Shown in pieces: positions 19,166 to 19,952 of a stretch of DNA of 64,000 bases. The position numbers and the translations under genes were made by a program. The DNA comes from Podarcis liolepis. Lineage: Eukaryota. Each line of letters begins with the position of its first letter. The first letter of the stretch is position 1. The DNA is taken from assembly GCA_965112155.1 (NCBI GenBank), contig OZ218105.1. The stretch is one strand, 5' to 3'. The notes beneath the pieces were generated by a model. That model was not told the DNA's origin and made no database searches. It was given only the letters and a program-made list of their open reading frames with translations.

Positions 19166-19655
19166 GCCTAGATACACACACACCCCACACCAACTACTTG
19201 GTGGCCAATTAACCATGGATTAAAACGTTTTGGTTATAATCCAAAAATTTTCTGGGATTGATGCACACAATAGAGGATTTTTTCATTTTGTTGAATCGTA
19301 CTGGCACACTCAGTGCTGAGGTTTTGGAGCGGGAGTCTCTGATTCATGTAAAGAATCTGGGTATGTGCTTGAAACTTTTGGGTTTGGGTGAATGTGTGAA
19401 CAACCTCAAATGATTCAAGGCCTGAAAGTGGTCCTCCTATAAAGTTTGCAGAGTCCATGGTACATGAGGGCCCACAGGCCCACCCAAATATATATCTTAA
19501 AGATATAAAGTATTTAATATATATTTATCTTAATATGTTATATACAACAGCTGTATATCTTATATCCATATATATTGTCTATATATCATATACAACAATT
19601 TTGCTAAAAAAATTCCTTCCAGTAGCACCTTAAAGACCAACTAAGTTAGTTCTTG

Positions 19656-19692
19656 GTATGAGCTTTCGTGTGCATGTACACTTCTTCAGATA
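19656..19692 (-). ncRNA. Minimal type-I hammerhead ribozyme motif (PLE-type), intact core
   Basis: Minus strand: UAU-CUGAAGA-A-GUGUACAUGCACAC-GAAA-GC-UC/AUAC. All core boxes present, with palindromic AGCU helix III. Confidence 0.65.
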
Positions 19693-19709
19693 TCTGAAGA
19701 AGTGTGCAT

Positions 19710-19747
19710 GTATCTGAAGAAGTGTGCATGCACACAAAAGCTCATAC
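19710..19747 (+). ncRNA. Minimal hammerhead ribozyme motif with core mutation (GAAA to AAAA)
   Basis: GUAU-CUGAAGA-A-GUGUGCAUGCACAC-AAAA-GC-UC/AUAC; G12 is lost, consistent with CpG decay. Confidence 0.6.
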
Positions 19748-19952
19748 CAAGAACTAACTTAGTTGGTCTTTAAGGTGCTACTGGAAGGAATTTTTTTATT
19801 TTGACTATGGCAGACCAACACGGCTACCTATCTGTAACAATTTTGCTGTTATATTGTAATGTAGCTCTCTGTTAATTATTTCTATGACAAATACTTCAGG
19901 TTTAATTAAAAATTTCTTCTCATAATAATGTTTCACCACTGATGATAAGATA

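Follow-up and report, generated by a model that had tools for sequence, protein, structure and literature searches.

An intron of a Podarcis liolepis teashirt gene carries a short palindromic insertion with a hammerhead ribozyme motif on each strand. The motif that is sense to the gene has lost G12, a catalytically essential base of the hammerhead. The locus raises the question of whether the host removed a ribozyme from its own pre-mRNA and, with it, the question of how such a palindrome is formed. We analyzed the insertion within a window of 64,000 nucleotides (contig OZ218105.1) and then across its repeat family. The insert very probably derives from a young Penelope-like element (PLE) of the Neptune type, as a short noncoding insertion. 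It would have arisen in a single step, in which the first 90 to 130 RNA bases were copied two times, with one copy going into each strand of a staggered 12-bp cut. The change G12>A would then most likely be neutral CpG decay in a motif that the hairpin is predicted to mask.

The insertion, its host intron, and its parent element

The insertion sits in a long intron of a teashirt gene on the plus strand. The features are as follows. Positions in the pLTR are counted from the A of an Inr-like TCAGT (+1).

3580-3619, plus strand: coding exon 1 of the host teashirt gene, which sets plus as the transcribed strand
About 11.5 kb past the window end (in locus L122), plus strand: teashirt exon 2 with its splice acceptor
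19594-19605, plus strand: left target site duplication (TSD), 12 bp, AACAATTTTGCT; contigs from three related organisms have the empty site, with a single copy
19606-19692, minus strand: inverted arm without tail, pLTR about +5 to +91, ending in the T-tract
19656-19693, minus strand: minimal hammerhead motif in antisense direction relative to the host gene; all core letters kept, helix I of 3 bp, A.C mismatch in helix II at 19677
19691-19710, plus strand: 5'-proximal fragment (+5 to +24) copied again at the junction, with a TA overlap with the inverted arm
19710-19835, plus strand: tailed arm, pLTR +4 to +129, aligned to the pLTR of the full-length copy L201
19710-19747, plus strand: minimal hammerhead motif in the sense direction of the host gene; carries G12>A in a CpG (19736) and would nominally be cleaved after 19743
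19799-19835, plus strand: one-sided tail that includes the first codons of the ORF, from the start codon at 19807
19836-19847, plus strand: right TSD, AACAATTTTGCT; its first 3 bases also fit the continuation of the element

The earlier note had placed the insertion in TSHZ1 pre-mRNA. The strand and the gene family stand. The paralogue name TSHZ1 is tentative and comes from the N-terminus; the match obtained was to teashirt homolog 3 (2dmi).

The insert is 230 bp long (19606-19835) and lies between two copies of the 12-bp target. In contigs of three related organisms, 19593 is joined straight to 19836. The best-matching run, which may not be independent of the window, contained one contig that covers the filled right junction and a second that resembles the empty allele. 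The insertion may therefore be polymorphic, although this is only a hint. The hairpin arms (19605-19692 and 19711-19798) are 88 nt each, with 98% complementarity, and the center holds a 20-nt direct repeat (19691-19710 and 19711-19730). Similar junction fragments are present in other copies of the family. The insertion with its TSD, the near-perfect hairpin (arms first given as about 86 bp), and the 20-nt partial duplication were thus all described correctly in the earlier note.

The family contains about 20,000 arms in the P. liolepis genome. The hammerhead 23-mer has 14,506 exact copies in the genome count and 20,154 with at most one mismatch. The left arm of the insert matched 79 places within the 40 candidates that were scored out of 1111. 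Longer copies extend upstream into a GIY-YIG frame. Copy L201 (G000:C8:51194001-51204000), on the same contig as the insertion, is a full-length PLE with an unbroken frame of 910 amino acids. Its protein matched RVT_1 (E=3e-12) and GIY-YIG (E=3e-5), both above the Pfam cut-offs. The full-length protein had no PDB sequence match. Upstream of GIY-YIG it has the linker CNKPRCQLC (CX4CxxC). The available text of PMC8557442 defines the Neptune clade by CX2-5CxxC between the reverse transcriptase (RT) and the endonuclease (EN), a linker shared with Nematis. The pLTR of L201 has CCAAT at -84, TATA at -30, the Inr-like motif at +1, the hammerhead motif at +4 to +41, a T-tract from +81 on, and the ATG at +101. 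The earlier note had rightly named the PLE origin and the minimal type-I hammerhead in the pLTR. The hammerhead of L201 has U in place of C at position 17. An old fragment of a related PLE pLTR, about 77% identical, lies at 57788-57835 of the window.

The parent has the organization of an EN+ PLE. It encodes RT with a C-terminal GIY-YIG domain, and the insert itself keeps the first codons only. The ORF of L201 is preceded by a partial tandem copy, which supplies the pLTR with its hammerhead motif, and by an inverted truncated copy. The family shows this inverted 5'-truncated copy together with the one-sided tail and the TSD. By sequence, then, the insert is a two-armed stub of a young Neptune-type PLE, and its layout is the Neptune-type EN+ layout of PMC8557442, as far as the available text describes it. 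The insertion units described in PMC8557442 and PMC3846280 likewise have a head-to-head inverted copy, a one-sided tail (30 to 40 bp there), a TSD, a pLTR with TATA and an Inr-like motif, and a tail over the first ORF codons. Unlike those units, both arms here are cut down to about 90 to 130 bp, so the whole unit is a hairpin. In the open literature, outside subscription journals, Repbase/Dfam, and supplements, we found no description of this lizard PLE family. The insert is likely one of thousands of short stubs, probably dead, with a shape that is already published and mostly ordinary.

The window also contains a very high-copy repeat at 19950-20190. It has inverted ends (19959-19977 with 20102-20120 and 20177-20189) and internal repeats of 16 to 17 nt, and it looks like a small nonautonomous DNA transposon. 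Relatives have it at the orthologous site, and at L010 and L011 it has PLE stubs inside or adjoining it.

Formation of the two arms

We sampled 307 distinct arms from 226 loci on contigs C1 and C2. The sample was picked on the 23-mer and is enriched for CpG mutants, and its 3-kb loci can overlook distant partners. It contained 96 head-to-head pairs, which hold 192 of the 307 arms. Exactly one arm was tailed in 91 of these pairs, where 48 would be expected if tails were independent (p=8e-22). The TSD was estimated at 12 to 14 bp in 66 of the 96 pairs; it is 8 to 10 bp in Adineta, according to the available text of PMC8557442 and PMC3846280. Among the 115 solo arms, 55 were tailed and 60 were tail-less. 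The 5' ends cluster just behind the TATA/Inr promoter, where 122 of 307 arms have their first base between +1 and +7. Solo arms that begin at +2 have a nongenomic T in front (11 of 11), and those that begin at +4 often have a nongenomic G (12 of 18). There was no peak of arms beginning at the hammerhead cut (+38) in a small sample: the count was zero among 127 arms chosen independently of the motif and one among another 94. Re-copied 5' fragments were present at the junctions of 6 of 75 short pairs by strict count, and of more by eye.

From the motifs and the genomic ends we infer how such a stub would be made. The RNA would start just behind the promoter, 3 to 5 bases ahead of the hammerhead. 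One strand would be primed at the tail end (about +125 to +135) and the other at the T-tract (about +86 to +99). Both cDNAs would run off the 5' end of the RNA, with copying of the cap or untemplated addition. They would sometimes re-jump, which would give the 20-nt duplication, and would then join by microhomology. RNA reads of a related organism showed no start pile-up at the proposed start site in the 6 to 12% of each run that was read.

The pair, tail, and 5'-end data would fit the in vitro behavior of Poseidon of Anolis carolinensis (PAc), as given in the available text of PMC11167929. The anole PLE cuts and extends both strands, and its RT starts at two internal sites that bound the tail. 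It inserts without need of its hammerhead and uses uncleaved RNA. By analogy, the family here would share all three properties. It differs from PAc (PMC11167929) in its Neptune/Nematis-type cysteine linker and in its ORF, which starts 60 bases after the hammerhead and not inside it.

A few copies add detail. In L141, L147, L150, L152, L159, L160, and L165, the copy runs 40 to 80 bases into the ORF and is followed by a second copy that starts at +1 to +4. RT can thus also begin deeper in the ORF. Junctions in L204, L207, L250, and L252 carry several tandem re-copies of the 5'-proximal 10 to 40 bases, which resemble repeated template realignment. Rare variants are common to both arms of a pair in L047, L052, L116, L049, L207, L265, and L286. 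Such sharing points to one source RNA or to arm-to-arm conversion.

The second arm could instead come from fold-back self-priming of one cDNA, or on an antisense template, with no separate priming of the second strand. This alternative concerns arm formation only, and we consider it unlikely. Arkhipova et al. interpreted the palindromes at junctions as the outcome of self-priming, with an antisense strand as template (PMC3846280, available text). Many junctions here have zero-spacer palindromic centers and local hairpins, and the variants shared between arms would also suit this origin. Self-priming is harder to reconcile with the solo arms. In number, tail-less solos match the tailed ones, which means that the T-tract end can form on its own. 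Direct junction fragments or offset 5' ends also mark many pairs, and the anole enzyme extends both strands in vitro in the account available from PMC11167929. We therefore prefer separate priming of the two strands.

It is very unlikely that the palindrome is a nonautonomous mini-element, similar to a MITE or a retrozyme, that propagates itself by being copied whole. Many copies do have an identical center and near-identical arms, but the identical-center copies had been selected by the query. In young pairs, 13 arm variants were shared between arms and 78 were private, and the shared ones would suit copying as a unit. A MITE would have uniform length and symmetric terminal inverted repeats. 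The family instead has an asymmetric tail, centers that vary widely between copies, and a continuous size series, with anchor spacing from 38 to 1932 bp and arms that grade up into ORF-containing copies. The stub also lacks the TATA/CCAAT region, which lies upstream of +1.

The hammerhead motifs and the loss of G12

The hammerheads were recognized by the minimal-hammerhead pattern only. The covariance-model search proposed in the earlier note returned no Rfam hammerhead family among 27 matches at E<=10. The best matches of that list were to miRNA families (MIR1222, mir-3688, and others). We rejected them, as all were under gathering scores and reflect a generic hairpin. The motif shares a short helix I, an extra base before helix II, and the G10.1-C11.1 pair with the minimal type-I hammerheads of metazoan PLE pLTRs (PMC4209133, available text). 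It also shares their palindromic 15/16 positions and has no real helix III. In contrast to those hammerheads, the two motifs of the insert lie on opposite strands in a perfect duplex, one with G12A and the other with weakened helices.

The plus-strand motif does not have all of the conserved core bases, as the G12 of the family is replaced by A at 19736. The mutation was correctly identified in the earlier note. The minus-strand motif, which the same note had called intact, does contain all conserved core bases (CUGAAGA, GAAA, UC). It is not an intact copy, because its helix I begins AUAU, not GUAU, and has 3 bp only, cut by the inversion junction, and its helix II (GUGUA/CACAC) has the A.C mismatch at 19677.

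Folding predictions suggest that neither ribozyme forms in this context. The hairpin has a minimum free energy of -158 kcal/mol (z=-21.8), which none of 200 shuffled sequences equals. In the model, a structure constrained to contain helices I and II lies 36.6 kcal/mol above the hairpin for the plus strand and 51.8 kcal/mol above it for the minus strand, and helices I and II of the minus-strand motif are predicted to be unable to form. In prefix folding, the sense motif is predicted to pair with the earlier arm as it emerges. The hairpin would thus bury the sense motif regardless of the identity of G12 and keep either ribozyme unfolded. Minimal PLE hammerheads have no activity as monomers and low activity as dimers or multimers, according to the available text of PMC4209133. 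Given the predicted burial, the weakened minus-strand helices, and this low published activity, G12 is likely invisible to selection at this insertion.

The mutation rate points to CpG decay. G12 lies directly 3' of C11.1 and is the G of a CpG. In counts of the hammerhead 23-mer, G12A was present in 945 copies and its CpG partner C11.1T in 836, and the other 67 single substitutions had a mean of 58 (16 and 14.5 times this mean, respectively). The small excess of G12A over C11.1T (p=0.01) counts against plain CpG decay. At a CpG in the tail, outside the ribozyme, G>A (279) and C>T (258) were balanced on 8,336 intact copies (p=0.39). In the young subfamily, G12A was found in 552/15142 copies (3.6%) and G>A at the tail CpG in 279/8615 (3.2%; p=0.10). 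The other 14,590 young copies keep G12. CpG decay, which the earlier note had named as a candidate cause, would account for the rate of G12>A. A two-fold decay excess at the ribozyme CpG in the all-subfamily 23-mer (6.5% versus 3.3% of intact counts) was rejected as an artifact of subfamily age. The G12A matches are rich in older subfamilies (the young-subfamily octamer is absent in 43/94 G12A matches versus 5/28 intact matches), and the excess is gone with young-only counts.

We used flank skew as a proxy for transcription direction. In the host intron, all six 10-kb bins had positive skew (mean, +0.072). We scored 76 of 100 listed G12A places; 10 in both-arm pairs and 1 tandem partner were excluded by design, and 13 others did not enter the set. 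We also scored 60 of 100 listed C11.1T places, one of which is a segmental duplicate. Oriented flank skew at the 76 G12A loci was -0.003 +/- 0.006, with 35 positive, so this proxy gave no sense bias. At the 60 C11.1T loci it was +0.005 +/- 0.008, with 31 positive and no difference from G12A (p=0.41). Palindrome-flagged G12A loci had positive oriented skew in 13 of 33 cases. A pattern in which all loci are sense would give a skew of +0.012 to +0.042 and is excluded, and a sense share of 60 to 89% is still allowed, depending on the assumed intron fraction and skew. In the open literature, outside subscription journals, Repbase/Dfam, and supplements, we found no published strand-bias test. Two pairs of loci, L270/L271 and L060/L123 (C1, about 49.33 to 49.41 Mb), have near-identical flanks about 61 kb apart and represent a segmental duplication or an assembly duplicate.

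The earlier note had proposed that the motif was inactivated specifically on the transcribed strand, and a genome-wide comparison of sense and antisense copies as its test. Approximated by the indirect skew proxy at 76 G12A loci, that comparison gave the proposal no support. It is very unlikely that a harmful self-cleaving ribozyme was lost from the sense strand through selection on the pre-mRNA: the only core change at the insertion is in the sense copy and at an essential base, G12A does exceed C11.1T, and PLE hammerheads can cleave with protein help (PMC11167929, available text), but G12A occurs at the rate of the tail CpG with no sense bias, most young copies keep G12, and the motif is predicted to be buried and of a kind with little published activity.

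Double-stranded RNA, putative editing, and the meaning of the family

The antisense arm would come first in the host pre-mRNA, and the sense motif would base-pair with it during transcription to leave an 88-bp duplex. ADAR would likely edit this duplex. The earlier note had proposed such a hairpin as a potential ADAR substrate, and the evidence for this comes at the level of the family. RNA reads of a related organism, compared with the L201 pLTR, covered the stub region in both orientations. Between 89 and 95% of the family reads cross into dissimilar sequence, the pattern that stubs within host transcripts should give. No RNA data set was listed for the insertion locus itself. There was no read-end pile-up at the hammerhead cut in the 6 to 12% of each run that was read. 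Among the differences listed, A>G on element-sense RNA at +55 (UAG) and +66 (UAA) reached 22 to 41% in one orientation and 1 to 3.5% in the other, in two bulk libraries read as stranded. The same changes were present in 2/296 genomic arms each. This strand-specific A>G looks like ADAR editing. The reads are family-level, come from another organism with no matched DNA, and could include one highly expressed variant copy.

Penelope is a massively edited LINE-class repeat of lizard, with over 40,000 sites, in the available text of PMC5625713. The family here and the hyper-edited repeats of that study, lizard Penelope and a palindromic Xenopus Harbinger, share a self-folding repeat as the ADAR substrate. 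That text gives the palindrome explanation for Harbinger only, and the putative editing here is at the level of the PLE family. We estimate that the genome contains 3,000 to 6,000 head-to-head pairs, from 21 pairs counted by eye among the first 100 matches listed and from the 63% of arms that are paired.

A broader reading seems to us evenly balanced between right and wrong. Each PLE insertion complex would prime two cDNAs from two fixed and different RNA sites, one per DNA strand, and both would be copied to the capped start of the transcript. Several thousand hairpins would then have been born as hairpins. This would explain why Penelope is the dominant reported ADAR substrate of the lizard, and the nongenomic T or G would be a fossil trace of where transcription began.

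The single insertion locus is of little weight. The analysis also gives a useful negative: there is no sign of host selection against minimal hammerheads in introns. The family is a countable record of PLE integration, with one tail per pair (91/96), 5' ends at the promoter, and a TSD of 12 to 14 bp. Its hairpins offer a structural reason for the heavy A-to-I editing of lizard Penelope.
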